Assembly: GCF_022539665.2 (NCBI RefSeq)
Contig: NC_081333.1
Location: 10,168,001 to 10,232,000 of the forward strand
DNA: 64,000 nt
Direction of reading: 5' to 3'
DNA from: Daphnia carinata
Lineage: Eukaryota
Part shown: positions 3,811 to 26,044 of the stretch, in pieces
Numbering within the stretch: the stretch's first letter is position 1
How the letters are laid out: each line of letters starts with the position of its first letter
Program-made: the position numbers and the translations under genes
Notes under the pieces: model-generated
What the model was told of the DNA's origin: nothing
Databases searched by the model: none
The model's input: the letters and a program-made list of their open reading frames with translations, nothing else

Positions 3811-3816
3811 CCTCAC

Positions 3817-4430: not shown

Positions 4431-5693
4431 TCATCTCCTCCTTGTAGATTCGGCATATCTTTCTAGCCAAGTAGCGAATTCGCCCAAGTCTGGCAAAGGT
4501 ACCACAGATGATTTTTCTTTGATGTGGAGAGCCCATTTTCCCCGCAAATCTTCAGATATCTTGTTCACTAAACCAGAGAGTTCCAGAGCAGCGAAACTAT
4601 GAATCTCGTTTGCACAACCCACCGCCTTCAAAATTGCTAAAATGTGTTGTACTTTTTCGGATAAGTCGCCAAGCGAAGACTGTAGATTGTTCGAGTCGAT
4701 TGGAACCAATTTCCTAAGCCCTTCAAAGCACGAGCGAACCACTAGTAAAGGGTGTCCATAGTGGTTACTGAGATGAGTGAGCAGCTTGCGATAGCGGCCA
4801 GGGTGGCTAAAATGCGACACAAATTTTTGGCGGAGTTCAGGTGAAAGAAGTTCTTCCAAGTAGATCATCCGCAGTGTATCGTTGGGCATTGCATCGTGGA
4901 TCCATGTCTTGAAGCGTTGTATGAAAAAAGGCCAGTCCATGGGGTTGCCGGTAAACGGCTCCAAGCCAACGTGAGGCGGCCAGGAAGATTGATCGCCAAC
5001 GCACCAGTCCCAACAACAGAATGAATTACTGGAAGTCGGGGACGGTGGCAACACTCGTTCATCCAGTGAAAATTCAGCTGAAGAAGGCAGCTGAGCGATC
5101 CAGGAATCTGGAAGCGAACACGGTTGACAGTGGGGAATGGAAGGAATGGACGCTGAGGAAGACAGTGTGGAATTCGTTTTGCTAAGACAATATCGTTCTT
5201 CTCGATTTTGCTGCTCTAGCTGTTGGAAGTGATCCATCCGCTGAATTTCTCGACGAGTTTTCTCTAGTTCTTGGTGTCTTTTTTCGGATTCCGGACTGCG
5301 TCTATTACCTAAAGTTCCTCTTTCGCCCTATGTTTGAGTATGTTAATTTCCATATTTGAAGTTATGGATGCCGTTTTTGGTTATATGGACTAATTGATTA
5401 AATTTTACCTTGACAGCATGACTGCTTTCTAAGTACTGTGACATTTGACTGGTGCTGCTCGATCGCCGGAGACAGCCAAACAACTCTTGCTTTCCCTCAT
5501 CAGAAGCTGCCTTCGTTTGCATGTGATGTTGAACCTTAGAAGTTGTTCGAGTGAACCGTACTTTGGCTGTTTGCCGGTAAAAATGGGAGCAACCAGAATC
5601 GTTTTCAGATTCACTGCCAGTCGAATCGTACGATTCTTCACATGCAGAATAACGATAGCCGGTACCTTTACCATTAGAGTGTACTGACGACAT
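4431..5693 (-). CDS. Spliced ~393-aa protein with a Bel/Pao retrotransposon Gag-like (DUF1759-type) domain
   Basis: Coding exon 1 is 5693-5409 (MSSVHSNG...HAVK), then a phase-0 GT-AG intron at 5408-5328, then exon 2 at 5327-4431 in frame. It contains LEPFTGNPMDWPFFIQRFKTWIH...RMIYLEELL...YRKLLTHLSNHYGHP...LVNKISEDLRGKW, typical of Pao-type Gag. A further 5'-UTR intron lies at about 5782-5727. Confidence 0.8.
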
Positions 5694-6451
5694 GGCAACT
5701 GAAACCACGTGGTGGCCTTGGGCGACTGTGAAAATTGACAAATTGTTCTGGATGTTACATTTAAGCCACAAAAATTCTTACCTGAAACGTGATGAAATTT
5801 ATAGAACAAGATAGTGGATAACTAAACTGTGGCACAATCGAGAAAAATTATTGGCGTCGCTTTAAAGTTCAACGACGTCTCGTGTTTCACTGTGACTCGT
5901 GACTGCCGTGCGAGTTGTGAACTGTGAAGCACAGGGCCGAGTAGTACTAATAGCAATGTGGTGGACCCTAAATCAACCCATTTTTAAAATCGAGGGTGTG
6001 GTAGTGAATCAAATGAGGTACAATATCGTGCAACAAACGAAATCGCGCGCTCAGCCTTGTTCACTTTTGATATACGTTTCGTGTGACTGCAAAGATCATG
6101 TGAGCTATCTATAAAACCCTTACTGCCAACAAAACCTTACTCTCTCAGTAAAGGCACACTATAAGTACCTTGACAAAAATAAAAGTATGCCATTAACCGA
6201 ACATACATTGAAATTTCTTTATATTGCTATGGCAATCCGTTTTATATGGCAATCCGTTTTACATTTAAAAAAAAAAAAATGTCGAGAAAAAAAAAAAAAA
6301 TCGCACTTTTTTCTTTTTTTCCGACACGTAGCCATCTACCGCTCAGACTCATTATTACTGGCGTAGGCAATTTCAGTCCATTGGATGCCATTCGCAGTTA
6401 GTTCAGTAGCGTGGCTGGAGAACAAAGCGTGGCTGGAGGAACAATTGAAAA

Positions 6452-7184
6452 ATGGATAAGATAATACAACAAAAGGATGGTAAGTATAAACATTATTATA
6501 TTGGTTTTCAATTATTAATTATTGTTTATTAGATCAAATTATGAAGCTGCAGGCCCAATTATTGGAACAACACAAAATATTAGATAACAGCAAAGCTAAG
6601 GATGGTAAGGCCTAATACGTAATGATTCTATTTATTTGCTTTTATTCATTTGTGTTTTGTAGCTCAAATTTTGAGTCTACAAGCTCAGCTATGGGAAAAG
6701 AACAAATTGGAACGGAACAGTTTCCAAACAGTGAAGGAGGTTTTTCCAAACTCATCCCTAACTGAACGTGAGGATGAATTGGCATTAGGCGAACACAGTC
6801 AGGTACCTAAACTTTTCAAATAAGAATTCAAAATAAGTATAGAATTTTAACAAGCAATGATTTATTGTTTAGTTATTCAGTCCACCATCAGACAGTGCGT
6901 TAAATTTAAATTCTGTTAGTGCTGCACTAAAAGAATTGTTCGTAATCAGTCCATGCAGCGATGGAACTGAACAATTGTGGGACCGTATTTGGGCTGAAAA
7001 TGGGTGTGGTACGGAAACCCAGAAATGGCACGAGTTCAACCTAAAACATGGATTAGGTACTTCCCGGTTCTTTGTCTATCGAAAAAGTATTTTGAATGCT
7101 ATTATTTTGCATTCACAGAATTTTAGCGGGGGATCAAGTCAAATATGGAAGTGTTACAGGATGGAAGAGTCAGCCTGTAGTTGA
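6452..7184 (+). CDS. Arm-encoded spliced gene of unknown function (coiled-coil-like N-terminus), best-preserved copy
   Basis: Exons 6452-6479, 6533-6604, 6663-6802 and 6873 onward join in frame through GT-AG introns: MDKIIQQKD-DQIMKLQAQLLEQHKILDNSKAKD-AQILSLQAQL...ELALGEHSQ-LFSPPSDS...LWDRIWAENGCGTETQKWHEFNLKHGL. The 3' exon structure is uncertain. Confidence 0.6.
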
Positions 7185-7825
7185 AAAAACACAGAGTGCA
7201 TTACCGTTAAGGTGTGAGGTAAAGTAATAGAGTGATGCAAGTTGTCTAATGAGAAGTACCATATTGTGTTAATGAATCTGGTACAACAGCAATCCTTTAT
7301 AGTTCTGTCACAGCTAGAAGCCTCAAATAATTCTGCTTCTCTTGCTAAAGAACAACTTGTCCTTTACGTTCACAGTGTTGGTGAAACTGGGTACTTAAAT
7401 GGCCCTAAGATTTTGCTGCCGTTGCAGAGATGAACATCATACATGGACTCTTTAGGTATGAAAGGAATTTTCTTCAAATAATTTTGAATTTATGGCAAAG
7501 CATTTCTCCTGCTTTTTGCCAACCATGTCTAATCTAAAAAAAAAATTATCCAATAGGAAAGGATTTTCAGCATACTGGGAACACAACTATCAACAATGCA
7601 ACATTCTACGCGTGCTATTTTATCATTCAAGAGCCTTATACAATGATTTTCATCTGCAATTTGTATGGCCTTTCCCAAGCTTCTGCCAGAAGTTGAATCT
7701 ATAAGTCATGTAAGTCACATGAGCAACAATTGAGATGCTTAATGGTGTTGTTTTTCTTTTCTCAGCATAGGTTAATAGTAACGTGGATGGAGAGAATAAC
7801 GCGTGGCTGGAGGAACAATTGAAAA

Positions 7826-8402
7826 ATGGATAAGATAATACAACAAAAGGATGGTAAGTATAAACATTATTATATTGGTTTTCAATTATTAATTATTGTT
7901 TATTAGATCAAATTATGAAGCTGCAGGCCCAATTATTGGAACAACACAAAATATTAGATAACAGCAAAGCTAAGGATGGTAAGGGCTTATACGTAATGAT
8001 TCTATTTATTTGCTTTTATTCATTTGTGTTTTGTAGCTCAAATTTTGAGTCTACAAGCTCAGCTAGGAGAAAAGAACAAATTGGAATGGAACAGTTTCCA
8101 AACAGTGAAGGAGGTTTTTCCAAACTCATCCCTAACTGAACATGAGGATGAATTGGCATTAGGCGAACACAGTCAGGTACCTAAACTTTTCAAATAAGAA
8201 TTCAAAATAAGTATAGAATTTTAACAAACAATTATTTATTGCTTAGTTATTCAGTCTACCACCTGACAGTGTGTTAAAGTTAAATTCTGTTAGTGCTGCA
8301 CTAAAAGAATTGTTAGTAATAAGTCAATGCAGCGAAGGAATTGAACAATTGTGGGATCGTATTTGGGCTGAAAATAGGTGTGGTACGGAAACCCAGAAAT
8401 AG
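7826..8402 (+). pseudogene. Arm gene copy with TGG>TAG stop in exon 4
   Basis: Same exon/intron layout as 6452; CAGAAATAG in place of CAGAAATGG. Confidence 0.55.
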
Positions 8403-9299
8403 CATGAGTTCAACATAAAACATGAATTAGGTACTTTTCGGTTTTTTGTCTATCGAAACAGTATTTTTAATGCTATTATTTTGCATTCACAGAATTCTAG
8501 TGGGGAATCAAGTCAAGTCTAGAAGTGTTACAGGATGGAAGAGTGAGCCTACAGTTGAAAAACACTGAAAGTGCATTACCATTAAGGTATGAGGTAAAGT
8601 AATAGAGTATGCAAATTGTCTAATGAGAAGTACCATCTTGTGTGAATGAATCCTGTGTAACAGCAATCCTTTATAGTTCTGTTATAGCTAGAAGCCTCAA
8701 ATAATTCTGCTTCTCTTGCTAAAGAACAACTTGTCCTTTACACTCAGAGTGTTGGTGAAGCTGGGTACTTAAATGGCCCTAAAGATGTTTCACTTCACTG
8801 GCATTGCAGCGATGAACATCATACATGGACTCTTTAGGTATGAAAGGATTTTTCTTGAAAAATTTTTGAATTTATGATGAAGCTTTTCTCCTCCTTTTTG
8901 CCAACCATGTCTTATCTACAAAAAAAAATTTATCCAATAGGAAAGGATTTTCAGCATACTGGGAACACAACTATCAACAATGCAACATTCTAGGGGTGTT
9001 ATTTTATCCTTCAAGAGCCTTATACAATGATTTTTATCTACAATTTGTATGGCCTTTCCCGAGCTTCTGCCAGAAGTTGAATCTATGAGTCATGTAAGTC
9101 ACATGAGCAACAATTGAGATGCTTAATGGTGTTGTTTTTCTTTTCTCAGTGTAGGTTAATAGTAACATTGGATCTGAAAAAATTCTTGGTTGGGGCATGA
9201 CACTGAATAAATTGTAATGATTGGATGGATGACATGATATTTCTATACTTCATTCGGATTCCCGAGACGGTATTTGATATTTAAAAAATTGAAGTGCAT

Positions 9300-9667
9300 A
9301 TCTGGGCTCCCTTCCTTTCCGTAGCCCCGTTTCCCCTTGACTCGTAATAAGCCCGTAGGGGGTCATGCCCCTACTGTACGGTATATATAAAAATAACATA
9401 TACCGAGGTTTGGAGGGCTCTGGCCGGAAAGGGGACGTGGGGGTCCGCTTAGTCCGATGATGTGTTCACGGAGGGCGACGTGGCTATCCACAAATCCGAA
9501 CTAAAGGTTAATCGCTCCAGTAAAAATGTTCCATATCTTCGGCTCTTCTTCCGGCTTCTCTTAGCCAATCACCGGGTAATCTCCCCGGTGGGTCAACAAG
9601 GCAGTGTCTCCCCCTGTCTGGGTTGACGGCAACTTTTGAAAGGGCTATTGTGCCTTTTTAAAGTTGC
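9300..9667 (+). ncRNA. Putative structured RNA or cis-element at the inner end of the arm (A left)
   Basis: Series of stems: 9355-9374, 9379-9405, GCCGGAA 9423-9429 with TTCCGGC 9549-9555, 9570-9590, 9592-9627 and 9629-9667. GC-rich island in AT-rich DNA. Confidence 0.4.
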
Positions 9668-9954
9668 AAAAATAATTGTAATGTGCAGAGAATTGTCAAT
9701 AAAATTTTTTTTATAAAATATTTTTTGCAAAATTCGTTTCTTTCATTGTCTGTATTCGCTGTGTTCACACGTTACACTTTTTATATTTAGGTTGCTTAAT
9801 TCACCTTTATTGTTTTTGTCACCTTTGATGGTAAGCATTGTTTCCATTGGTTTATCGTTTATCTGTAACTATTATTTATTACACTCTTTGAATTGTTCAA
9901 CTTAGATTCAAGGAACAATCTGGATATTTTATAAAGTAATTTTGTATTTTGTTT

Positions 9955-10025
9955 TACTCGTATGGGAACCGATCCCCAGACATTGAGCGTGCGACGCCGA
10001 TGCTCTAACATTGAGCCACGAGATA
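9955..10025 (-). pseudogene. tRNA-derived unit 1 (Ala-like; anticodon position CGC here, TGC in copies B and C)
   Basis: Minus strand reads TGGCTCAATGTTAGAGC (D arm/box A), TCGGC-loop-GCTCA, and TGGGGATCGGTTCCCA (degenerate T arm). Confidence 0.6.
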
Positions 10026-10121
10026 TATCTAAATTTTTTATTATCGCATATCATATGTTATCGTCTAGGATGTTTATGCAGTCTTTCACAACTATATGTT
10101 TATCTTTCTATTGCTTCCATA

Positions 10122-10192
10122 AGGTTCTTAGCTCTGTGGTAGAGCTTTTATCTGCGATACCTGTTACCCTGGGTTCAAACCTCAGTAGATGT
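10122..10192 (+). pseudogene. tRNA-derived unit 2 (degenerate)
   Basis: TAGCTCTGTGGTAGAGC D arm/box A and CTGGGTTCAAACCTCAG T arm/box B at tRNA spacing; anticodon and acceptor stems are decayed. Confidence 0.55.
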
Positions 10193-10309
10193 GTAAAAAT
10201 GAAGTAGAATATTGTACAAGAGTATGTTGCAGAATTGCATTTCAGTTTTATTCTAAGTGTAAATGCAAGTCCACAAGTGACTAGAAAAAAAAGCCAACTT
10301 AAAATCATA

Positions 10310-10380
10310 TGATTCGTGGCTCATTGGTAGAGCATCGGCGAGGTATGCCGAACATCCAGGGTTCGATCCCTGGATAATAA
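10310..10380 (+). pseudogene. tRNA-derived unit 3 (GGT at the anticodon position) with intact Pol III boxes
   Basis: GCTC-ATTGGTA-GAGC D arm, TCGGC-GAGGTAT-GCCGA anticodon arm and CAGGG-TTCGATC-CCTG T arm; the acceptor stem does not pair properly. Confidence 0.7.
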
Positions 10381-10588
10381 TAGAATGCTTACAGATAAAC
10401 GATAAACCAATACCCGTCACCTTACCATCAAATGTGACAAAAACAAATAAAGCAAAGCCAAAAAAAAAAAATTGATAAATGTAATGTGTGAACAAAGCTA
10501 ACACAGACAATGAAAGAAACGAATTTTGCAAAAAATATTTTATAAAAAAAATTTTATTGACAATTCTCTTCACATTACAATTATTTTT

Positions 10589-10955
10589 GCAACTTTAAAA
10601 AGGCACAATAGCCCTTTCAAAAGTTGCCGTCAACCCAGGCAGGGGGAGACACTGCCTTGTTGACCCACCGGGGAGATCACCCGGTGATTGGCTAAGAGAA
10701 GCCGGAAGAAGAGCTGAAGATTTGGAACATTTTTACAGGAGCGATTAACCTTTAGTTCGGATTTGTGGGCAGCCACATCACCCTCCGTGAACACATCATC
10801 GGACGAAGCGGCACCCCACGTCCCCTTTCCGGCCAGAGCCCTCCAAACCTCGGTATATGTTGTTTTTATATATACCGTACAGTAGGGGCATGACCCCCTA
10901 CGGGCTTATTATGAGTCAAGGGGAAACGGGGCTTCAGAAAAGAAGGGAGCCCAGA
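10589..10955 (-). ncRNA. Copy of the structured segment (A right)
   Basis: Reverse complement of 9300-9667 with few substitutions. Confidence 0.4.
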
Positions 10956-11665
10956 TATGCACTTCAATTTTTTAAATATCAAATACCGTCTGGGGAATCC
11001 GAATTAAGTATAGCAATGTCATGTCATCCATCCAATCAATACAATTTATTCAGTGTCTTGCCCCAACCAAGAATCTTTTCAGATCCAATGTTACTATTAA
11101 CCTATATTGAGAAAAGAAAAACAACACCGTTAAACACATCAATTGTTGATCATGGAACTTACATGACTCATAGATTCAACTTCTGGTGGAAGCTTGGGAA
11201 AGGACATACAAATTGCAGATTAACTTCATTGTATAAGGCTCTTGAATGATAAACTAGCACCTGTAGAATGTTGCATTGTTGATAGTTGTGTTCCCAGTAC
11301 ATGAAAATCCTTTCCTATTGGATAAAATTTTTTTTGGTAGATAAGACCTGGTTGGCAAAAAGGAGGAGAAATTCTTCGTCATAAATTCAAAATTATTTGA
11401 AGAAAAATCCTTTCATACCTAAAGAGTCCATGTATGATGTTCATCTCTGCAATAGCAGCAAAATTAAAACATCTTTAGGGCCATTTAAGTACCCAGTTTC
11501 CCCAACACTCTGAACGTAAAGGACAAGTTGTTCTTTAGACAGAGAAGCAGAATTATTTGAGGCTTCTAGCTGTGACAGAACTATAAAGGATTGCTGTTGT
11601 ACTGGATTCATTAACACAAGATGGTACTTCTCATTAGGCAATTTGCATTACTCTATTAATTTACC

Positions 11666-12427
11666 TCACACCTTACGGTAATGCACTCTCAGTGTTTTTT
11701 CATCTGTAGGCTCACTCTTCCATCCTGTAACACTTCCAGACTTGATTTGATCCCCCGTTAAAATCTGTGAATGCAAAATAATAGCATTAAAAATACTTTT
11801 TCGATAGACAAAAAACCGAAAAGTACCTAATCCATGTTTCATGTTGAACTTGTGCCATTTCTGGGTTTCTGTACCACACCCATTTTCGGCCCAAATACGT
11901 TCCCACAATTGTTCAGTTCCTTCACTGCATGAGCTTATTACTAACGATTCTTTTAGTGCAGCACTAATAGAATTTAAATTTAACACACTGTCATGTGGTG
12001 GACTGAATAACTAAGCAATAAATAATTGTTTGTTAAAATTCTATACTTATTTTGAATTCTTATTTGAAAACTTTAGGTACCTGGCTGTGTTCACCTAATG
12101 CCAACTCATCCTCACGTTCAGTTAGAGATGAGTTTTGAAAAACCTCCTTCACTGTTTGGAAACTGTTCCGTTCCAATTTGTTCTTTTCCCCTAGCTGAGC
12201 TTGAAGACTCAAAATTTGAGCTACAAAACACGAATGAATAAAAGCAAATAAATAGAATCATTACGTGTTAGGCCTACGATCCTTAGCTTTGTTATCTAAT
12301 ATTTTGTGTTGTTCCAATAACTGGGCCTGCAGCTTCATAATTTGATCTAATAAACAATAATTAATAATTGAAAACCAATATAATAATGTTTATACTTACC
12401 ATTTTTTTGTTTTATTATCTTATCCAT
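11666..12427 (-). pseudogene. Arm gene copy (diverged subtype), right arm of A
   Basis: Reverse complement of the arm gene, ATG at 12427; ORF track 11666-11986 covers exon 4. Intactness uncertain. Confidence 0.5.
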
Positions 12428-12578
12428 TTTTCAATTGTTCCTCCAGCCACGCGTTGTTCTCCAGTCACGCTACTCAATTAACTGCTAATGGGATACAATT
12501 AACTCAAATTGCTTACATTCCTGTAATAACGAAACCGACTGATAGATGGCTACGGGTAGAAAAAAGAGAAAAAAGTGC

Positions 12579-12622
<44 letters not shown>

Positions 12623-12962
12623 GTAAAACGGATTGCCATAATTGCCATAGTTTTACACAAAAAAAAAAAATATTTCGCCAAAAAAAAAAAAAAAAATTAC
12701 ACTTTTTTCTTTTTTTCGATCCGTAGCCAGCTACCGGTCAGAATCGTTATTACTATGGCAATCCGTTTTACACAAAAAAAAAAAAAAATTTCGCCAAAAA
12801 AAAAAAAAAAATCGCACTTTTTTCTTTTCTTCCGACACGTAGCCATCTACCGCTCAGACTCGTTATTACTGGCGTAGGCAATTTCAGTCCATTGGATGCC
12901 ATTCGCAGTTAGTTCAGTAGCGTGGATGGAGAATAACGCGTGAATGGAGGAACAAATGAAAA

Positions 12963-13538
12963 ATGGATAAGATAATACAACAAAAGGATGGTAAGTATAA
13001 ACATTATTATATTGGTTTTCAATTATTAATTATTGTTTATTAGATCAAATTATGAAGCTGCAGGCCCAATTATTGGAACAACACAAAATATTAGATAACA
13101 GCAAATCTAAGGATGGTAAGGGCTTATACGTAATGATTCTATTTATTTGCTTTTATTCATTTGTGTTTTGTAGCTCAAATTTTGAGTGTACAAGCTCAGC
13201 TAGGGGAAAAGAACAAATTGGAATGGAACAGTTTCCAAACAGTGAAGGAGGTTTTTCCAAACTCATCCCTAACTGAACATGAGGATGAATTGGCATTAGG
13301 CGAACACAGTCAGGTACCTAAACTTTTCAAATAAGAATTCAAAATAAGTATAGAATTTTAAAAAACAATTATTTATTGTTTAGTTATTAGTCTACCACCT
13401 GACAGTGTGTTAAAGTTAAATTCTGTTAGTGCTGCACTAAAAGAATGGTTAGTAATAAGTCCATGCAGCGAAGGAAGTGAACAATTGTGGGACCGTATTT
13501 GGGCTGAAAATGGGTGTGGTACGGAAACCCAGAAATAG
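12963..13538 (+). pseudogene. Arm gene copy with premature TAG, left arm of B
   Basis: ATG at 12963, same splice sites, TAG at 13536-13538. Confidence 0.55.
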
Positions 13539-14437
13539 CACGAGTTCAACATAAAACATGAATTAGGTACTTTTCGGTTTTTTGTCTGTCGGAAAAGTAT
13601 TTTTAATGCTATTATTTTGCATTCACAGATTTTAACGGGGGATCAAATCAAGTCTGGAAGTGTTACAGGATGGAAGAGTGAGCCTACAGATGAAAAAACA
13701 CTGAGAGTGCATTACCGTAAGGTGTGAGGTAAATTAATAGAGTAATGCAAATTGCCTAATGAGAAGTACCATCTTGTGTTAATGAATCCAGTACAACAGC
13801 AATCCTTTATAGTTCTGTCACAGCTAGAAGCCTCAAATAATTCTGCTTCTCTGTCTAAAGAACAACTTGTCCTTTACGTTCAGAGTGTTGGGGAAACTGG
13901 GTACTTAAATGGCCCTAAAGATGTTTTAATTTTGCTGCTATTGCAGAGATGAACATCATACATGGACTCTTTAGGTATGAAAGGATTTTTCTTCAAATAA
14001 TTTTGAATTTATGACGAAGAATTTCTCCTCCTTTTTGCCAACCAGGTCTTATCTACCAAAAAAAATTTTATCCAATAGGAAAGGATTTTCATGTACTGGG
14101 AACACAACTATCAACAATGCAACATTCTACAGGTGCTAGTTTATCATTCAAGAGCCTTATACAATGAAGTTAATCTGCAATTTGTATGTCCTTTCCCAAG
14201 CTTCCACCAGAAGTTGAATCTATGAGTCATGTAAGTTCCATGATCAACCATTGATGTGTTTAACGGTGTTGTTTTTCTTTTCTCAATATAGGTTAATAGT
14301 AACATTGGATCTGAAAAGATACTTGGTTGGGGCAAGACACTGAATAAATTGTATTGATTGGATGGGTGACATGACATTGCTATAGTTAATTCGGATTCCC
14401 CAGACGGTATTTGATATTAAAAAAATTGAAGTGCATA

Positions 14438-14804
14438 TCTGGGCTCCCTTCTTTTCTGAAGCCCCGTTTCCCCTTGACTCATAATAAGCCCGTAGGGGGT
14501 CATGCCCCTACTGTACGGTATATATAAAAACAACATATACCGAGGTTTGGAGGGCTCTGGCCGGAAAGGGGACGTGGGGTGCCGCTTCGTCCGATGATGT
14601 GTTCACGGAGGGTGACGTGGCTGCCCACAAATCCGAACTAAAGGTTAATCGCTCCTGTAAAAATGTTCCATATCTTCGGCTCTTCTTCCGGCTTCTCTTA
14701 GCCAATCACCGGGTAATCTCCCCGGTGGGTCAACAAGGCAGTGTCTCCCCCTGCCTGGGTTGACGGCAACTTTTGAAAGGGGTATTGTGCCTTTTTAAAG
14801 TTGC
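14438..14804 (+). ncRNA. Copy of the structured segment (B left)
   Basis: Near-identical to 9300-9667. Confidence 0.4.
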
Positions 14805-15010
14805 AAAAATAATTGTGATGTGCAGAGAAATGTCAATAAAATTTTTTTTATAAAATAATTTTTGCAAAATTCGTTTCTTTCATTGTCTGTGTTAACTTTG
14901 TTCACACATTGCATTTATCAATTTTTTTTTTGGCTTTGCTTTATTTGTTTTTGTCACATTAGATGGTAAGGTGACGGGTATTGGTTTATCGTTTATCTGT
15001 AAGCATTCTA

Positions 15011-15434
15011 TTATTATCCAGGGATCGAACCCTGGATGTTCGGCATACCTCGCCGATGCTCTACCAATGAGCCACGAATCATATGATTTTAAGTTGGCTT
15101 TTTTTTCTAGTCACTTGTGGACTTGCATTTACACTTAGAATAAAACTGAAATGCAATTCTGCAATATACTCTTCTACATTATTCTACTTCATTTTTAATC
15201 ATCTACTGAGGTTTGAACCCAGGGTAACAGGTATCGCAGATAAAAGCTCTACCACAGAGCTAAGAACCTTATGGAAGCAATAGAAAGATAAACATATAGT
15301 TGTGAAAGACTGCATATGACGATGACGATAACATATGATATGCGATAATAAAATATTTAGATATATCTCGTGGCTCAATGTTAGAGCATCGGCGTTGCAC
15401 GCTGAATGTCTGGGGATCGGTTCCCATACGAGTA
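15011..15434. pseudogene. Cluster of three tRNA-derived units in the B spacer (15011-15081 -, ~15199-15269 -, 15364-15434 +)
   Basis: Reverse complement of the A spacer. Confidence 0.65.
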
Positions 15435-15721
15435 AAACGTAATACAAAATTACTTCATAAAATATCCAGATTGATATTTAAATCTAAGTTGAAGAATTCA
15501 AAGAGTGTAATAAATAATACTTACAGATAAACGATAAACCAACGGAAACAATGCTTACCATCAAAGGTGACAAAAACAATAAAGGTGAATTAAGCAAGCT
15601 AAATATAAAAAGTGTAACGTGTGAACACAGCGAATACAGACAATGAAAGAAACGAATTCTGCAAAAAATATTTTATAAAAAAAATTTTATTGACAATTCT
15701 CTGCACATCACAATTATTTTT

Positions 15722-16088
15722 GCAACTTTAAAAAGGCACAATAGCCCTTTCAAAAGTTGCCGTCAACCCAGGCAGGGGGAGACACTGCCTTGTTGACCCA
15801 CCGGGGAGATTACCCGGTGATTGGCTAAGAGAAGCCGGAAGAAGAGCCGAAGATATGGAACATTTTTACAGGAGCGATTAACCTTTAGTTCGGATTTGTG
15901 GATAGCCACGTCGCCCTCCGTGAACACATCATCGGACTAAGCGGACCCCCACGTCCCCTTTCCGGCCAGAGCCCTCCAAACCTCGGTATATGTTATTTTT
16001 ATATATACCGTACAGTAGGGGCATGACCCCCTACGGGCTTATTACGAGTCAAGGGGAAACGGGGCTACGGAAAGGAAGGGAGCCCAGA
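15722..16088 (-). ncRNA. Copy of the structured segment (B right)
   Basis: Reverse-complement copy. Confidence 0.4.
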
Positions 16089-16984
16089 TATGCACTTCAA
16101 TTTTTTAAATATCAAATACCGTCTCGGAAATCCGAATGAAGTATAGAAATATCATGTCATCCATCCAATCATTACAATTTATTCAGTGTCATGCCCCAAC
16201 CAAGAATTTTTTCAGATCCAATGTTACTATTAACCTACACTGAGAAAAGAAAAACAACACCATTAAGCATCTCAATTGTTGCTCATGTGACTTACATGAC
16301 TCATAGATTCAACTTCTGGCAGAAGCTGGGAAAGGCCATACAAATTGTAGATGAAAATCATTGTATAAGGCTCTTGAAGGATAAAATAACACCCCTAGAA
16401 TGTTGCATTGTTGATAGTTGTGTTCCCAGTATGCTGAAAATCCTTTCCTATTGGATAATTTTTTTTTGTAGATTAGACATGGTTGGCAAAAAGGAGGAGA
16501 AAAGCTTCATCGTAAATTCAAAAATTTTTCAAGAAAATTCCTTTCAAAGCTAAAGAGTCCATGTATGATGTTCATCGCTGCAATGCCAGTGAAGAGAAAC
16601 ATCTTTAGGGCCATTTAAGTACCCAGCTTCACCAACACTCTGAGTGTAAAGGACAAGTTGTTCTTTAGCAAGAGAAGCAGAATTATTTGAGGCTTCTAGC
16701 TATAACAGAACCATAAAGGATTGCTGTTACACAGGATTCATTCACACAAGATGGTACTTCTCATTAGACAATTTGCATACTCTATTACTTTACCTCATAC
16801 CTTAATGGTAATGCACTTTCAGTGTTTTTCAACTGTAGGCTCACTCTTCCATCCTGTAACACTTCTAGACTTGACTTGATCCCCCACTAGAATTCTGTGA
16901 ATGCAAAATAATAGCATTAAAAATACTGTTTCGATAGACAAAAAACCGAAAAGTACCTAATTCATGTTTTATGTTGAACTCGTG

Positions 16985-17561
16985 CTATTTCTGGGTTTCC
17001 GTACCACACCCATTTTCAGCCCAAATACGGTGCCACAATTGTTTAATTCCTTCGCTGCATGGACTTATTACTAACAATTCTTTTAGTGCAGCACTAACAG
17101 AATTTAACTTTAACACACTGTCAGGTGGTAGATTGAATAACTAAGCAATAAATAATTGTTTGTTAAAATTCTATACTTATTTTGAATTCTTATTTGAAAA
17201 GTTTAGGTACCTGACTGTGTTCGCCTAATGCCAATTCATCCTCATGTTCAGTTAGGGATGAGTTTGGAAAAACCTCCTTCACTGTTTGGAAACTGTTCCA
17301 TTCCAATTTGTTCTTTTCCCCTAGCTGAGCTTGTAGACTCAAAATTTGAGCTACAAAACACAAATGAATAAAAGCAAATAAATAGAATCATTACGTATAA
17401 GCCCTTACCATCCTTGGCTTTGCTGTTATCTAATATTTTGTGTTGTTCCAATAATTGGGCCTGCAGCTTCATAATTTGATCTAATAAACAATAATTAATA
17501 ATTGAAAACCAATATAATAATGTTTATACTTACCATCCTTTTGTTGTATTATCTTATCCAT
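16985..17561 (-). pseudogene. Arm gene copy with premature TAG, right arm of B; upstream region interrupted by the P-like element
   Basis: ATG at 17561 on the minus strand, stop at 16987-16985. Confidence 0.55.
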
Positions 17562-17582
17562 TTTTCAATTGTTCCTCCAACC

Positions 17583-18961
17583 CATGGCCTACTCTAATAA
17601 CGGCCTAACAACGCGCAATACCCCCAGCGCCTAAAACTGCATTGCCAGAGGGGCTTAATACCCCAAATCGAGCTCCACTTTCCACTGTTTGGTAACAAAT
17701 ACACACTTGAAATGTGTGGAAGGAAGCTGTGGAAGTGGAATTTTTTTTTCTTTTTTTTCTAGTACTACAGTAGTACCGCTTTCTCAAAGAACATATATCC
17801 CAATAACAATAATGATCCCAATATATCCCATTTCACATAAATCAAACAATAAGAACACGGTTGAATTTTCAAGGTTTTTTATTACTTCTGAAGTTTTATG
17901 ACTTTTCTTTTCTTTGGTTTGTTAGACACAACTGGAATTTTATCAAATTGCACTCTAAACCTCTTTTCTTCAGTTCACAGAACAGCAAGGAAAAATTTTT
18001 TACACAAAAAGATTCCAAAATACCACTAACATTCATGGAAGAGTTGGCCACAGATATTGACGGGCCACTTGTATGGAAATCTGGATAAATGTTACCAGAG
18101 ACAAACTGTTTTTCATGAGGTGTTGATTGCCTATTAAAATCAGTAGGTGGTTCACATGCAAAGTCTTGATGAAAGTGGGAATGCATGGTTTGTTCTTTCT
18201 CCTAAAAAACATAAATATATTGGTTAAACATATTAGCGGGACATGTCACAATCTGAATTTCAAATCCTTACCAAACTTGTTGAAGGAATAATACTACCAC
18301 AGGTAGACTTCGTTCCTGGAAATTCTGACCGTTCATAGGAATTGGAAACCAATGAACCCATTGCGTGGGCATTTGCCTGAAAAGGAAAAATGTTTCTGTT
18401 ACACAATTATCACTGTACATAAGAATATTGCATGTCGAAGTAACCTCATGAAGAGTAGTAGTGGATGGCCATGACCGGAACAGGCTTGGTACTGCGTTTT
18501 TCAGCAATTTGTTTTTTTCATTATAGCAGTTAGGTTCAAAGTGCAAACTGCAAATGCGGAGGTCTTTGTGTAATTTAAAATATTTGGAAAAACCTGTTAT
18601 TGCACTGTTGGATGCAAATTGACGAAGCCATAGTTCAATTACATTTTCGTTTCTTGGCCAACGAAAGAAACGAAGATTATTTTCTTTATTTGCGTAACTT
18701 GAACTAGAACAAAATAAAACGCAACACTTCACTCTCATTTAAAAAAAAAAACTACCCTACACAAAAAGCACTAATCGCGACTGAGACGCTGTCCACTTAA
18801 ACAAGCATTGCCGAGCAATGGCAAAAATCAAGAAAATTTTAATGGGTGGAATTACGCTTTGGAAAGTGGAATTCAATTTGGGGTATTAAGCCCCTCTGGC
18901 AATGCAGTTTTAGGCGCTGGGGGTATTGCGCGTTGACAGGCCGTTATTAGAGTAGGCCATG
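17583..18961 (-). mobile_element. Non-autonomous P-element-like transposon (1379 bp)
   Basis: ~100-bp imperfect TIRs beginning CATGGCCTACTCTAATAACGGCCT; perfect 8-bp TSD CTCCAACC (17575-17582, 18962-18969); empty site visible in sister arms (e.g. ~25743); encodes a THAP domain. Confidence 0.92.
17896..18738 (-). CDS. THAP-domain protein, 3 exons, ~234 aa, no transposase catalytic core
   Basis: C2CH THAP signature CCVLFC...FFRWP...W...ICSLHF...AVPSLF. Exons 18738-18445, 18376-18272 and 18201-17896 join in phase 0 via GT-AG introns. Confidence 0.8.
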
Positions 18962-20172
18962 CTCCAACCACGCGTTATTCTCTCCATCCACGCTACTGAA
19001 CTAACTGCGAATGGCATCCAATGGACTGAAATTGCCTACGCCAGTAATAACGAGTCTGAGCGGTAGATGGCTACGTGTCGGAAAAAAAAGAAAAAAGTGT
19101 GATTTTTTTTTTTTTTTTGGCGAAATTTTTTTTTTTTTTTTGTGTAAAACGGATTGCCATATATTACTGGCATGTCAATTTGAGTCCATTGGATCCAGCC
19201 ATTCCACTTCTAGGGATATTACCCTATTTAGGGGGATTTAAGGAAAATTTTTGGAATCTAGGGTGCAGTTATGGAAATCTAGGGTTTCCGGGGTTATCCA
19301 GGGCCTATTTAATTTTCTGGGGATTTCTCGGGATTTTGAGATTTTTGGCCAAACCGCTGTTGCTTTTGGCGCTTCTATGCAACTTCAAAAGTAAAATGTT
19401 CCTCAATAAGAGCCACCAAGCGGACAATGGTGAACGGTACGCTTGCAGAAAGTAACACTGACTAGGATACACCACGAACTCCATTTGATCCTCCAAACGT
19501 CTGTGCCAAACATATCGCACGCCGAATTTTTTAAGACTCAAGTCTCCGACTGAATTTCTGACAAGCACTTGACCCAATTGCAAAAGCTGGGGAGAGTTCC
19601 TTGAATATATACGTAGGAATTACGAATCTATTTTGTTCAACCATGAGGAACAATTTGTTGTTGAGACATGATGAACCCGAGGCCTCTCACACAAGTTTGT
19701 TATCTAGGTGAGCAACACACTGTTCATTGGGAAACGCTGTGATTCTCTTGAGGCTTTATAACGTTGAAAGTTCGATGACAATTATTTTTGGAAAAAACCA
19801 TATCTTTATTGCTTAACTAAACAAATATGATGGGGCAATCCGATGGTTTTATTTCCATAGCCAATTTAAATTTTTCTGGTAACTTGTTTGGCTTTGACGG
19901 GCACTGGTTAATTGCTTTAAAAATGTGTTCGATTTAATGCTGTTCTAAAATAAATAAAATGGGTTATTTTATTTTTTTTATTTACATTTATAAAAGTAAT
20001 AAAATTTTTTTTGAAGCAATGGCGTCTATAAGAACCGAACACGGACAGTCGACGTATGATCTCAGTGCTATACCACAGCGCCCTACCACAGCGCGACACC
20101 ACTATTAGTCACATATTATATAGCTCCGGTATTAGAACGAAGGTCGATGAAAAATAAATTTGTTTGAGATGT

Positions 20173-20245
20173 GCGGTCCTGGCACAGTGGTTACCACCTT
20201 CGCTTCGCATTCTGAAGGCCCCGGGTTCAAGTCCCGACACCGCCA
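20173..20245 (+). pseudogene. tRNA-Ala(CGC)-like or SINE-head sequence
   Basis: Box A TGGCACAGTGG (20180-20190), GCTTCGCAT loop, box B GGTTCAAGTCC (20224-20234) and GCGGT/ACCGC acceptor pairing. A purine-rich A/G tract follows at ~20346-20448. Confidence 0.65.
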
Positions 20246-20945
20246 ATTTCCCCCCCTCCCTTTCCCTCCAAATCTTCATTCAAGATACGCAAGATTCATC
20301 GGATTACGCAAGCTTCTACAACAGATCAAGACGCAAGATTCCTTCAAGAAAGAAGAAAAGAAGAGAGAAAACAAGAAGAAAGAAAAAAAGAAGAGAGAAG
20401 AACGAAAAGACAAGAAGAAAGAAAAAAAGAAAAGAGAAAAAAGAAGAGCCATGCCTACTATAAAGGGGCTAAATGGCACACCAAAAAAAGCCTTGCCAGG
20501 CTAAAAATGGCAAAAATAGCCTTGCCAGGCTAAAAATCGATCTGTAGTACTGTTCACTACCTTGAAGATCGAACCACAAGCTGAAAGGTAGAGAAAAGGT
20601 GATCGTTGAACGTAGGCTGTTCGTTAGCCTCCCCACGGCCTGAAAGACGGCTCGTGGATGCAGGCAGCTTATCATCGGGATACGTGACCCAATTCGCTAC
20701 CCGTAAGCTTTTGTTGTTCCTTTTTGTATCTAACACCACCACTTTGCGGAAACGATGGAAGAAATGGTGAAGTTCAAGCATGACAAGCATGAACGAGTGT
20801 AAGTTTTGTAAGTAAGAATAGCATAGAACATACAGAATGGTAATATTATTTATTTACAAGCTAATATAAGCCCGAGTTCGAATCTAGCCCTCATTTCTTT
20901 TTCCCTTTCCTACCGTAAGCTGGCCACGCGCGGCGCTAGGTTCCG

Positions 20946-21046
20946 GGAAAGTGGAGCTCGGTTTGGGGTATTACGCCCCTCTGACAATGCAGTTTTAGGC
21001 GCTGGAGGTATTGCGCGCTGACAGGCCGTTATTATAGTAGGCCATG
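20946..21046. mobile_element. Solo terminal inverted repeat of the same P-like family
   Basis: Highly similar to 18861-18961, ending GTAGGCCATG; no partner TIR found. Confidence 0.85.
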
Positions 21047-21226
21047 AAAGTAACAGGGATTTTTCTGGGGATTTTATTTTTTTAAAATAAGGATTTATGT
21101 CCCCAGTCTGGCAACGTTCTAGGGATACCACTTTGCGGAAAGTGGAAACACTGATTGGATCCCATTGTCAGTTAGTCGAGTAGCGTGGGTGGAGAAAAAC
21201 GCGTGGCTGGAGAAAAATATGTTAAA

Positions 21227-21954
21227 ATGGATAAGATAATAAAAGATAAGGATGGTAAGTACAAAGATTATTACATTAGTTTTCAATTATTAATTATTGT
21301 TTTTTGGCTCTAATTATGAACCTGCAGGCTCAATTATTGCAACAGCAGAAAATATTAGGTGACAACAAAACCAAGGATGGTAACACGTAATGATTGTATT
21401 TGTGTTGTTTTATTCATTTTTGTTTTTTAGCTCAAACTTTGAGTCTACAAGCTTAGTTACTGGAAAAAAAAACAAGTTAGAACGGGACACTTTCCAAACA
21501 GTGAAGGAGGTTTTTCCAAACTCATCCCTAACTGAACGTGAGGATGAGTTGGCATTAGGCGTACACAGTCAGGTACCTAAACTTTTCAAATAAGAATGCA
21601 AAATAAGCATAGAATTTTAACAAGCAATGATTTATTGTTTAGTTATTCAGTCCACCATCAGACAGTGCGTTAAATTTAAATTCTGTTAGTGCTGCACTAA
21701 AAGAATTGTTCGTAATCAGTCCATGCAGCGATGAAACTGAACAATTGTGGGACCGTATTTGGGCTGAAAATGGGTGTGGTACGGAAACCCAGAAATGGCA
21801 CGAGTTCAACCTAAAACATGGATTAGGTACTTCCCGGTTCTTTGTCTATCGAAAAAGTATTTTGAATGCTATTATTTTGCATTCACAGAATTTTAGCGGG
21901 GGATCAAGTCAAATATGGAAGTGTTACAGGATGGAAGAGTCAGCCTGTAGTTGA
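21227..21954 (+). pseudogene. Arm gene copy (third subtype), left arm of C
   Basis: ATG at 21227; the intron-1 acceptor reads TTGG rather than TTAG; exon 4 is open (ORF 21706-21954). Confidence 0.5.
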
Positions 21955-22688
21955 AAAAACACAGAGTGCATTACCGTTAAGGTGTGAGGTAAAGTAATAG
22001 AGTGATGCAAATTGTCTAATGAGAAGTACCATCTTGTGTTAATGAATCTGGTACAACAGCAATCCTTTATAGTTCTGTCACAGCTAGAAGCCTCAAATAA
22101 TTCTGCTTCTCTGGCTAAAGAACAACTTGTCCTTTACGTTCACAGTGTTGGTGAAACTGGGTACTTAAATGGCCCTAAGATTTTGCTGCCGTTGCAGAGA
22201 TGAACATCATACATGGACTCTTTAGGTATGAAAGGAATTTTCTTCAAATAATTTTGAATTTATGGCAAAGCATTTCTCCTGCTTTTTGCCAACCATGTCT
22301 AATCTATAAAAAAAAATTTATACAATAGGAAAGGATTTTCAGCATACTGGGAACACAACTATCAACAATGCAACATTCTACGGGTGCTATTTTATCATTC
22401 AAGAGCCTTATACAATGATTTTCATCTGCAATTTGTATGGCCTTTCCCAAGCTTCTGCCAGAAGTTGAATCTATAAGTCATGTAAGTCACATGAGCAACA
22501 ATTGAGATGCTTAATGGTGTTGTTTTTCTTTTCTCAGCATAGGTTAATAGTAACATTGGATCTGAAAAGATTCTTGGTTGGGGCAAGTCACTGAATAAAT
22601 TGTAATGATTGAATGGATGACATGACATTTTTATACTTCATTCGGATTCCCGAGACGGTATTTTATATTTAAAAAATTGAAGTGCATA

Positions 22689-23055
22689 TCTGGGCTCCCT
22701 TCCTTTCCGTAGCCCCGTTTCCCCTTGACTCGTAATAAGCCCGTAGGGGGTCATGCCCCTACTGTACGGTATATATAAAAACAACATATACCGAGGTTTG
22801 GAGGGCTCTGGCCGGAAAGGGGACGTGGGGGTCCGCTTAGTCCGATGATGTGTTCACGGAGGGCGTCGTGGCTACCCACAAATCCGAACTAAAGGTTAAT
22901 CGCTCCTGTAAAAATGTTCCAAATCTTCAGCTCTTCTTCCGGCTTCTCTTAGCCAATCACCGGGTAATCTCCCCGGTGGGTCAACAAGGCAGTGTCTCCC
23001 CCTGCCTGGGTTGACGGCAACTTTTGAAAGGGCTATTGTGCCTTTTTAAAGTTGC
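22689..23055 (+). ncRNA. Copy of the structured segment (C left)
   Basis: Near-identical copy. Confidence 0.4.
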
Positions 23056-23265
23056 AAAAATAATTGTAATGTGCAGAGAATTGTCAATAAAATTTTTTTT
23101 ATAAAATAATATTTGCAAAATTTGTTTCTTTCATTGTCTGTGTTCACACATTACATTTATCAACTTTTTTTTTATTTACCTTGCTCAATTCACCTTTATT
23201 GTTTATGCCACCTTTGATGGTAAGCATTGTTTCCATTGGTTTATCATTTATCTGTAAGCATTCAA

Positions 23266-23688
23266 TTATTATCCAGGGATCGAACCCTGGATGTTCGGCA
23301 TACCGGGCCAATGCTCTACCAATGAGCCATGAATCATATGATGTCAAGTTGGCTTTTTTCTAGTCACTTGCGGACTTGCATTTACACTTTGAATAAAACT
23401 GAAATACAATACTGCAATATTCTTTTCTACATTTAGATGTAGATCTTTATACATCTACTAAGGTTTGAACCCAGGGTAACAGTTTTCGCAGCTGAATGCT
23501 CTACCACAGAGTTATGGACGTTATGTAAGCAAAAGAAAGATAAACATATAGTTGTGAAAGACTGCATAAACATCCTATACGATAACATATGATATGCGAT
23601 AATAAAAAATTTAGATATATCTCTTGGCTCAATGTTAGAGCATCGCCGTTGCACGCTGAATGTCTGGGGATCGATTCCCATAACAGTA
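23266..23688. pseudogene. Cluster of three tRNA-derived units in the C spacer (23266-23336 -, ~23450-23520 -, ~23618-23688 +)
   Basis: Diverged copy in the same orientation as B; box A/B motifs are retained. Confidence 0.65.
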
Positions 23689-23883
23689 AAACAATATACA
23701 AATACAAAATTACTTCAGAAAATATCCAGGTATTACACGTTGTTCCTTGTCTAAGTTCAAAAATTCAAAAAGTGTAATAAATAATAATTGAATACTTACA
23801 GATGAACGATACAACAAATTTTGCAAAAATTATTTTATAAAAAAAATTTTATTGACAATTCTCTGCACATTACAATTATTTTT

Positions 23884-24250
23884 GCAACTTTAAAAAGGCA
23901 CAATAGCCCTTTCAAAAGTTGCCGTCAACCCAGGCAGGGGGAGACACTGCCTTGTTGACCCACCGGGGAGATTACCCGGTGATTGGCTAAGAGAAGCCGG
24001 AAGAAGAGCTGAAGATTTGGAACATTTTTACAGGAGCGATTAACCTTTAGTTCGGATTTGTGGGTAGCCACGACGCCCTCCGTGAACACATCATCGGACT
24101 AAGCGAACCCCCACGTCCCCTTTCCGGCCAGAGCCCTCCAAACCTCGGTATATGTTGTTTTTATATATACCGTACAGTAGGGGCATGACCCCCTACGGGC
24201 TTATTACGAGTCAAGGGGAAACGGGGCTACGGAAAGGAAGGGAGCCCAGA
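23884..24250 (-). ncRNA. Copy of the structured segment (C right)
   Basis: Reverse-complement copy. Confidence 0.4.
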
Positions 24251-25152
24251 TATGCACTTCAATTTTTTAAATATAAAATACCGTCTCGGGAATCCGAATG
24301 AAGCATAAAAATGTCATGTCATCCATTCAATCATTACAATTTATTCAGTGTCTTGCCCCAACCAAGAATCTTTTCAGATCCAATGTTACTATTAACCTAT
24401 GCTGAGAAAAGAAAAACAACACCATTAAGCATCTCAATTGTTGCTCATGTGACTTACATGACTTACATATTCAACTTCTGGCAGAAGCTTGGGAAAGGCC
24501 ATACAAATTGCAGATGAAAATCATTGTATAAGGCTCTTGAATGATAAAATAGCACCCGTAGAATGTTGCATTGTTGATAGTTGTGTTCCCAGTATGCTGA
24601 AAATCCTTTCCTATTGTATAAATTTTTTTTTATAGATTAGACATGGTTGGCAAAAAGCAGGAGAAATGCTTTGTCATAAATTCAAAAAATTTTCAAGAAA
24701 ATTCCTTTCATACCTAAAAAGTCCATGTATGATGTTCATCGCTGCAATGCCAACGAAATGAAACATCTTTAGGGCCATTTAAGTACCCAGCTTCACCAAC
24801 ACTCTGAACGTAAAGGACAAGTTGTTCTTTAGCAAGAGAAGCAGAATTATTTGAGGCTTCTAGTTGTGACAGAACTATAAAGGATTGCTGTTATACAGGA
24901 TTCATTCACACAAGATGGTACTTCTCATTAGAAAATTTGCATACTCTATTACTTTACCTCATACCTTAATGGTAATGCACTTTCAGTGTTTTTCAACTGT
25001 AGGCTCACTCTTCCATCCTGTAACACTTTCAGACTTGACTTGATCCCCCACTAAAATTCTGTGAATGCCAAATAATAGCATTAAAAATACTTTTTCGATA
25101 GACAAAAAACCGAAAAGTACCTAATTCATGTTTTATGTATGTTGAACTCATG

Positions 25153-25729
25153 CTATTTCTGGGTTTCCGTACCACACCCATTTTCAGCCCAAATACGGTC
25201 CCACAATTGTTCACTTCCTTCGCTGCATGGACTTATTACTAACAATTCTTTTAGTGCAGCACTAACAGAATTTAACTTTAACACACTGTCAGGTGGTAGA
25301 CTGAATAACTAAACAATAAATAATTGTTTGTTAAAATTCTAAACTTATTTTGAATTCTTATTTGAAAAGTTTAGGTACCTGACTGTGTTCGCCTAATGCC
25401 AATTCATCCTCATGTTCAGTTAGGGATGAGTTTGGAAAAACCTCCTTCACTGTTTGGAAACTGTTCCATTCCAATTTGTTCTTTTCCCCTAGCTGAGCTT
25501 GTAGACTCAAAATTTGAGCTACAAAACACAAATGAATAAAAGCAAATAAATAGAATCATTACGTATTAGGCCTTACCATCCTTAGCTTTGCTGTTATCTA
25601 ATATTTTGTGTTGTTCCAATAATTGGACCTGCAGCTTCATAATTTGATCTAATAAACAATAATTAATAATTGAAAACCAATATAATAATGTTTATACTTA
25701 CCATCCTTTTGTTGTATTATCTTATCCAT
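25153..25729 (-). pseudogene. Arm gene copy with premature TAG, right arm of C
   Basis: ATG at 25729 on the minus strand, stop at 25155-25153. Confidence 0.55.
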
Positions 25730-26044
25730 TTTTCAATTGTTCCTCCAGCCACGCGTTATTCTCCAGCCACGCTACTGAACTAACTGCGAATGGCATCCAA
25801 TGGACTGAAATTGCCTACGCCAGTAATAACGAGTCTGAGCGGTAGATGGCTACGTGTCGGAAAAAAAGAAAAAAGTGCGATTTTTTTTTTTTCCGCCATT
25901 TTTTTTTTTTAATGTAAAACGGATTGCCATATGTAAAACGGATTGCCATATCGCAATCCCGATCACGAAAAAAAAATTTATCGCGGATCCGATTATTTTT
26001 AACGATCTACCTTTTCGCCATCTAGTGGTCGATTTGGCTATCGT

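Follow-up and report, generated by a model that had tools for sequence, protein, structure and literature searches.

Probable foldback transposons with IS3EU-type ends, nested within their own terminus and carrying a spliced gene in each arm, in Daphnia carinata

A 64,000-nucleotide stretch of the Daphnia carinata genome (NCBI RefSeq assembly GCF_022539665.2, contig NC_081333.1, positions 10,168,001 to 10,232,000 of the forward strand), referred to here as the window and numbered from its first base, contains a large repeat cluster at positions 6228 to 25950. The cluster is probably a nested pile of a 5-kb foldback transposon that has ends of the IS3EU superfamily, lacks a transposase core, and is likely moved by an IS3EU transposase encoded elsewhere in the genome. 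The anatomy of the element was derived from self-BLAST of the window, and its boundaries were set by terminus matching and empty-site reconstruction.

Four modules recur in the self-BLAST: a terminus of ∼210 bp (T), a 1.35-kb spliced gene (G), a last exon that holds a segment termed S, and a center of ∼500 bp (R). They are arranged in the order T-G-S-R-S-G-T, with a net size of 4.9 to 5.0 kb once inserts are removed. Six full arms of ∼2.1 kb and one extra gene copy are present, and the inverted pairs are 88 to 96% identical. The inverted repeat occupies ∼4.5 of the 5.0 kb and thus makes up most of this nonautonomous element, as in foldback transposons; the tandem subrepeats of foldback arms were not found in these arms, which have just doublets of 17 to 19 bp and A-tracts. 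The self-BLAST confirmed that the inverted repeat is real and that the arms form inverted pairs. A first-pass annotation of the window had described three copies of a ∼5-kb unit arranged side by side, each reading terminus, gene, segment, and spacer in mirrored order. The three two-armed units and the mirrored order stand, but the spacer boundary was corrected, since the arms extend through the outer tRNA-like units, and the copies are nested rather than adjacent.

The outer element, A (6228 to 25931; 4.9 kb net), has a left terminus that empty-site reconstruction shows to be split into four pieces (6228 to 6244, 12656 to 12753, 19168 to 19195, and 21162 onward). Element B (6245 to 12649), of the same family, lies after base 17 of this terminus and is flanked by the target site duplication (TSD) GTTTTA. 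Element C (12754 to 19161; 5.0 kb net), also of this family and opposite in orientation to B, lies ∼115 bp into the terminus and is flanked by the TSD TATTAC. The target sequences of B and C are both parts of T, and an insert of another kind, Y (19196 to 21153), also lies in A's left T. When B, C, and Y are cut out, a continuous A terminus of 205 bp is recovered, identical to C's left terminus at 178 of 204 positions. Because this excision restores the terminus, the 19.7 kb can be read as a single outer copy whose first 145 bp received three inserts. In the right arm of C, the corresponding terminal region holds a fourth insert, X. An alternative parse, in which B starts at 6228 with the 5-bp TSD ATTGC, was rejected because the intact target was not restored. 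The left arm of B contains the gene twice, in tandem. Two ends are doubled: the right end of B by 9 bp (12641 to 12649) and that of A by an extra 19-bp terminus (25932 to 25950, reverse strand). The latter is likely the stub of a copy whose end received another copy; most simply, both doublings would be stubs of additional self-insertions followed by recombination between arms.

The sequence TATGGCAATCC starts at 6228, 6245, and 12754, and its complement ends at 12640, 19161, 25931, and 25950. All seven termini found read TATGG..CCATA and fit the IS3EU pattern TAYGG..CCRTA. Perfect 6-bp TSDs flank two of the three elements (B and C), and each such direct repeat would arise by chance at a fixed boundary with a probability of ∼5 × 10⁻⁴. 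The terminal inverted repeat (TIR), which comprises the ∼210-bp terminal region and the ∼2.1-kb arms, is well above 30 bp. In C's left arm, the terminal region (TATGGCAATCCGTTTTACA, with A-tracts) spans 12754 to 12962 on the forward strand; it is likely both the end bound by the transposase and the promoter region. Polintons (Mavericks) have 6-bp TSDs, AG..CT ends, a length of 15 to 20 kb, and genes for polymerase B and an integrase. They were ruled out, as the unit here measures 5 kb, has TA..TA ends, and lacks open reading frames (ORFs) for polymerase B or integrase. In the accessible text of the respective reports, TA..TA ends are constant and 6-bp TSDs usual among IS3EU families (PMC10045372), those of rust fungi have TAYGG..CCRTA ends and TIRs of >30 bp (PMC12730594), and GingerRoot elements have 6-bp TSDs and TIRs of 100 to 150 bp (PMC6839031). 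The element is placed in IS3EU because its TATGG..CCATA ends and 6-bp TSDs equal this published signature. Both features had been noted in the first-pass annotation; the ends hold for every terminus, and a clean TSD holds for B and C but not for A. The accompanying proposal of a nonautonomous long-TIR derivative with IS3EU ends is likewise supported, by the match to the signature in PMC12730594 and by the link, described below, between the arm gene and an rva_4-type N terminus. IS3EU accounts for 0.05% of the D. pulex assembly in a table of PMC8594854, and the names scanned in the supplement of PMC10045372 include 34 for IS3EU and none for Daphnia. The terminus pattern had no match in metagenome contigs; its one match in a viral contig lay in a phage gene without other similarity and was taken as chance. 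Protein-based locus searches of contig collections, which do not cover the host genome, found no relatives.

The divergence between arms indicates what is copied. In the 3′ part of G and in S, respectively, the left arm of B differs from the right arm of C by 1.2% and 0.6%, and the right arm of B from the left arm of C by 0.4% and 1.4%. The two arms inside B or C are 9 to 10% (3′ part of G) and 3 to 5% (S) apart. Because the corresponding inner arms of B and C are only 0.4 to 1.4% apart and left and right inner arms 3 to 10%, it is the whole two-armed unit that replicates; B and C are sister copies of recent origin that face in opposite directions. Some patches have been homogenized from arm to arm, in the outer part of C (1.7%) and in the S segments of A (0.3%); they likely reflect gene conversion between arms, which would preserve the palindrome.

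The arm gene G spans 12963 to 14291 on the forward strand in C's left arm. Its seven copies have start codons at 6452, 7826, 12963, and 21227 on the forward strand and at 12427, 17561, and 25729 on the reverse strand, with ORFs of 143, 131, 89, 41, 157, 131, and 131 amino acids (aa) in that order; five of the seven are thus 131 to 157 aa long, and two are frameshifted. Splice sites of exons 1 to 4 are canonical (GT-AG) in all seven copies except for one acceptor; introns in the window are generally short. The last exon (14292 to 14850, forward strand) contains S and an AATAAA signal at ∼14836. A search with exon 4 (6873 to 7056, forward strand) retrieved 13 clusters with 92 member sequences at 79 to 87% identity, the representatives of which are all uncharacterized D. 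carinata proteins. Of the 85 members of six clusters, 46 could be placed; these and the representatives of the other clusters are located on chromosome-scale contigs of 10 distinct sizes. Neighboring locus numbers with identical proteins occur (LOC130689229/230, 130686766/767, and 130692407/408), which is the pattern expected of two arms. The proteins of the element match Daphnia records only, and copies in the window are identical to a D. carinata protein at up to 129 of 131 residues.

A phmmer search of 1.84 billion representative proteins returned 17 matches. Twelve of these, long proteins aligned in single or multiple stretches at 32 to 42% identity, were set aside as noise; the one inspected (P0054) is a bacterial repeat protein. 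Four short proteins from outside the family share the exon-4 leader, among them two from D. magna and one from D. sinensis. The first 45 codons of exon 4 match the leader of D. magna XP_045026876.1 (P0055; E value, 1.2 × 10⁻⁶), to which the relative P0002 aligns with 30 identities in 59 positions. In the predicted structure of P0055, the leader is followed by 105 residues that resemble the N-terminal helix-turn-helix (HTH) region of rva_4 integrase clusters. In 4 of 10 structure matches, residues 48 to 164 aligned, with template modeling (TM) scores of 0.61 to 0.72, to the N-terminal part of clusters that have PF24764 (rva_4) in 95 to 100% of their members. Because exon 4 matches the leader of a protein whose remainder is predicted to fold like the rva_4 N-terminal HTH region, G is likely the front part of an IS3EU transposase gene. 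A by-eye alignment of exons 5 to 7 to the HTH region and integrase motifs was supported by neither shuffles nor Pfam and is no more than a lead. The arm protein had no counterpart at ≥0.8 in the structure atlas, and neither it nor P0055 had a significant match in Pfam, NCBIfam, or PDB sequences. No longer homolog of P0055 was present among 754 candidates, a near-length search found just P0072, and a single-sequence fold of P0055 was unusable (predicted local distance difference test score, 41).

The arm gene is spliced, as shown in one transcriptome-like run, X1. Contigs of X1 skip the G introns at 12989 to 13043, 13114 to 13173, 13566 to 13629, and 13726 to 13790 (all GT..AG) and at 13313 to 13389; one contig links 13850 to the last exon at 14292, and S is covered as well. 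As a control, a 5047-nucleotide (nt) X1 contig skips 13 introns of a neighboring Sec24-like gene, and the run is considered to behave as a transcriptome because of this contig. X1 differs from the window by 0 to 13% over the exons of the Sec24-like gene and consists of assembled contigs, from which neither the strand nor the start, end, or level of transcripts can be read. Over G and S, the summed contig depth was much greater than over the center or the Sec24-like gene; this measure cannot rank genes and was not used as evidence. Run X3, from the same sample, had no contigs on the element or on the Sec24-like control and is therefore uninformative, and run X2 gave four short pieces with a word share of 0.08.

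Several points weigh against the reading as an IS3EU derivative mobilized from elsewhere. Element A has no clean TSD, its flanks being TATTGC on the left and TGTAAA or TCGCAA on the right; speculatively, TATTGC could have decayed from a duplicated TATCGC, in which case A would lie in the end of a related family. Pfam found neither an integrase nor a DDE core in 21 translated frames, in agreement with the first-pass statement that no DDE transposase could be recognized inside. Scans of viral and metagenome contigs, the host genome being outside their scope, revealed no autonomous partner. The link to a transposase extends over 45 to 59 residues and takes two steps, and beyond the leader, exons 5 and 6 compared with the HTH region gave a z score of about −0.8 in one shuffle test and P values of 0.10 to 0.16 in a second. 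The aligned part of P0055 falls below the structure atlas's bar for family naming, and rva_4 (PF24764) is presumed by us to be the IS3EU-type transposase core, with no paper found that states so. The D. carinata relatives are known as proteins and locus numbers. For run X1, the listing reads "DNA?" and gives no library record; the run comes from a single study of a related strain or species. Finally, IS3EU accounts for 0.00% of the genome of D. magna, the source of P0055, in the table of PMC8594854.

The segment S is hairpin rich, is ∼360 bp long, and occurs in six copies, at 14435 to 14796 on the forward strand and with other starts at 9298 and 22686 (forward) and at 10958, 16091, and 24253 (reverse). 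Relative to shuffled sequences, 451 nt folded with z scores of −3.5 (sense) and −5.2 (antisense), and 180-nt pieces with z scores of −1 to −2. None of the 114 or 116 predicted pairs had a two-sided change in these six closely related copies. S has 17 variable sites in 360, against 89 in 710 for the adjoining part of the gene (P = 3 × 10⁻⁵; P = 0.055 against the immediate flanks), which could be due to constraint or to conversion. In Rfam, S had no match better than an E value of 0.95, so that a ribozyme, small nucleolar RNA, 7SK, or RNase P/MRP finds no support there; in viral contigs, its pattern was absent. Most simply, S is read as an untranslated 3′ exon. Given a TATA-like run and a terminal T5 in S, a separate RNA polymerase III (Pol III) transcript would also be compatible with what was found. 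The first-pass suggestion that the element carries its own RNA modules therefore holds for the richness in hairpins and is weakly supported as regards an RNA module, given no Rfam match, no two-sided changes, and the location in G's last exon.

In B, the center spans 9882 to 10375 and includes three units: R1 (∼9958 to 10025, reverse), R2 (∼10122 to 10182, forward), and R3 (∼10313 to 10375, forward). The same center recurs in C (15016 to 15510) and A (23272 to 23790). The alignment of R1 and R3 scored 56 (shuffle maximum, 27) and that of R2 and R3 scored 40 (24), with R1 and R2 not significantly alike; from their sequences, all three are taken to descend, with divergence, from a single tRNA-derived unit. 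R1 is the mirror homolog of R3, and the two mark the diverged inner ends of the arms. No unit has an acceptor stem; in each of the three elements, R2 and R3 retain an intact B box. The Rfam tRNA model gave 27.8 to 32.9 bits for R3, over model positions 8 to 63 only, and 23.1 and 22.6 bits for R1 and R2, below the gathering score of 29. ARAGORN at default settings found no tRNA gene, that is, no complete cloverleaf, in the whole window; under relaxed settings, the spacers yielded tRNA calls, but so did insert Y, with 10, which makes that result nondiscriminating. The tRNA-like spacer of three units proposed earlier is thus present in all three centers, although the units are not full tRNAs and two of the three form the inner ends of arms.

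Under the reading preferred here, the left part of an IS3EU element, comprising the terminus, promoter, 5′ part of the transposase gene, 3′ exon, and tRNA-derived unit, would have been duplicated head to head, yielding two valid ends that could be mobilized in trans. The terminus may then be an insertion hot spot, as either a transposase-bound site or an open promoter. Both arms would be read inward and end at the AATAAA behind S, and the product would be a protein of 110 to 180 aa, with a coiled-coil-like N terminus (judged by eye) and a transposase leader, that should be unable to cut DNA. Its likeliest role would be that of a passenger or a weak modulator of the true transposase. A stronger role seems unlikely, namely, that the arm gene is a selected product that tunes the IS3EU transposase and that the tRNA-derived center blocks read-through, so that no long hairpin RNA forms and RNA interference is escaped. 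The ratio of nonsynonymous to synonymous differences (pN/pS) is ∼0.3 when the B-right lineage is compared with the six remaining copies (0.28 to 0.35 in six pairs; Fisher's P = 0.002 and 0.004 in the two pairs tested), and S varies less than the adjoining gene part. Against this, pN/pS is 0.57 to 0.74 in the other A-left pairs (P = 0.20 for A-left versus A-right, the sole pair tested) and 0.4 to 1.6 among recent copies, as under neutrality; nonsynonymous divergence between B-right and A-right is no different from intron divergence (P = 0.63); two of the seven copies are frameshifted; and the stop varies in position from 111 to 180 aa across 53 relatives. Past constraint on G is at most slightly hinted at. 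The center is a possible transcription barrier by analogy with yeast, where tRNA genes are roadblocks to Pol II in the accessible part of PMC5052057, and the intact B boxes of R2 and R3 would fit. The tRNA-like units are no more conserved than their flanks, however (16 of 177 sites differ, against 34 of 311), and the outer units would meet the polymerase head-on, unlike the orientation of the main yeast peak. Doubtful, too, is the fullest version of this idea: an IS3EU mobile palindrome that targets its own ends, both arms of which express a selected, truncated transposase-leader protein that controls or assists the transposase, with the structured 3′ exon and tRNA-derived center as a barrier against silencing hairpin RNA, and with ∼90 expressed species-specific genes as the outcome.

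The palindrome could have the opposite effect, with read-through across the center producing a ∼2-kb hairpin RNA and small RNAs that silence the IS3EU transposase. The geometry would match that of Mu killer, a partial element in inverted duplication (PMC1563492, accessible part), and X1 contigs fall in all 30 bins of the arm and center; we nevertheless find such a silencer improbable, since each arm has a last exon with an AATAAA signal, spliced sense forms are many, and strong self-silencing should have hindered the recent amplification of the family. It is very improbable that G is a host gene family placed in palindromes by segmental duplication and gene conversion, with incidental transposon-like ends. 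The ∼90 members annotated as RefSeq genes, the spliced forms, and the homogenized arms would all be consistent with a host family, but two copies are bounded exactly by TATGG..CCATA and perfect 6-bp TSDs, their excision restores the target, close members occur in one species only in the protein collection, and the sole informative distant relative resembles a transposase N terminus. That the inverted array is an assembly artifact is scarcely credible. While no long read or contig spans the array, the copies are 0.3 to 12% apart with independent indels, four inserts have perfect TSDs, and the nesting is self-consistent.

The two other inserts probably belong to different classes. Insert X (17583 to 18961, reverse strand; 1.38 kb), located just upstream of the ATG in C's right arm, has CATGG..CCATG ends, TIRs of ∼100 bp, and the 8-bp TSD CTCCAACC. 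It encodes a THAP-domain ORF (E value, 1.7 × 10⁻¹³), is nonautonomous, with no transposase core, and is taken by us to be P-superfamily-like. Insert Y (1.96 kb) has CAG..CTG ends and the 8-bp TSD ATTGGATC and is presumably hAT-like. It contains one X-type TIR, the third copy in the window (20946 to 21046), and a tRNA-headed piece resembling a short interspersed nuclear element (20170 to 20450) with an AAGAAAG-rich tail, which is not significantly similar to the tRNA-like units of the element. Right of A, a terminus-like sequence (25949 to 26045) begins with TATCGCAATCC, resembles T, and has A-tracts and the motif CCATCTAGTGG; it is probably the end of a related IS3EU family, and its partner end was not found in the window. 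Directly next to the element lies a separate palindromic repeat (26045 to 26893) resembling a miniature inverted-repeat transposable element, with a 380-bp hairpin at 83% and a third end copy at 26742 to 26893. On the other side, ∼200 to 400 bp from the element, which lies upstream of it, is a spliced gene (4431 to 5830, reverse strand; introns at 5326 to 5408 and 5725 to 5782) with DUF1759 (Pfam E value, 3 × 10⁻⁹), which we take to be a gag-type domain of BEL/Pao; the gene may be a domesticated retrotransposon gag gene. One X1 contig includes both this gene and the Sec24-like gene on the opposite strand, which suggests that the two overlap at their 3′ ends. Along the Sec24-like exons (200 to 5725), X1 is a mosaic relative to the window (0/331, 1/138, 24/219, 32/246, and 25/1630 differences), possible causes being introgression and a hybrid haplotype. 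At 44700 to 49800 (reverse strand), inspection of the translations by eye revealed exons of a ZMIZ-like gene.

If the preferred reading of a nested IS3EU foldback transposon is correct, the ∼90 D. carinata genes annotated as "uncharacterized" probably represent transposon cargo and not an expanded host gene family, which is relevant to Daphnia gene counts and orphan-gene claims. Repeated insertion into the first 145 bp of its own end offers a handle on IS3EU target choice, and a 5-kb palindrome that bears inward-facing spliced genes and shows no obvious silencing can serve as a natural counterexample to Mu killer. The structure and function of IS3EU are largely unexplored according to the accessible part of PMC11934779. 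The literature searched, comprising part of that on IS3EU and that on D. carinata transposable elements, contains no foldback IS3EU element and no such family, in line with the first-pass remark that no described element is known to have this combination; Repbase or Dfam may already hold the family.

The comparison with known systems draws on the accessible portions of the respective reports. The IS3EU and GingerRoot families (PMC10045372, PMC12730594, and PMC6839031) share the TA..TA ends, 6-bp TSDs, and TIRs of >30 bp, and the element falls within the GingerRoot size range of 3.9 to 12.9 kb. GingerRoot copies also carry intron-containing gene fragments, often without the DDE region. However, their TIRs are 100 to 150 bp long, whereas here the inverted repeat is ∼2.3 kb per arm and contains the gene; GingerRoot is hardly expressed in clubmoss, whereas G is spliced in a transcriptome-like run; and the tRNA-derived center and the nesting of copies in their own terminus set the element apart. 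Styx of Zymoseptoria (PMC10853768) is related to IS3EU, has lineage-specific coding sequences, and has copies with degenerate transposases that are still mobile; unlike the element described here, it has retained a gene for a DDD/E transposase, and that text does not describe it as a palindrome. Galileo (P superfamily; PMC2775673), Tetris (PMC4079207), and FB likewise possess very long TIRs, nonautonomous forms, and nested secondary insertions. Galileo belongs to another superfamily with 7-bp TSDs, and the TIRs of all three are internally repetitive and not described there as coding, whereas each arm here contains a complete spliced gene and lacks tandem subrepeats. Mu killer of maize (PMC1563492) and the Tam3 Stabiliser (bioRxiv 2024.06.24.600476) similarly involve part of a DNA transposon that was duplicated in inverted orientation or rearranged, but they are single silencing loci that make hairpin or small RNAs, and the element here is itself mobile, exists in multiple copies, and has a polyadenylation signal in both arms. 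Thus, each ingredient has a precedent, namely, IS3EU ends, foldback derivatives of other superfamilies with nested inserts, and inverted duplications of transposon parts, and what appears to be new is the spliced, likely transposase-derived gene in both arms together with ∼90 annotated relatives in one species and self-nesting.

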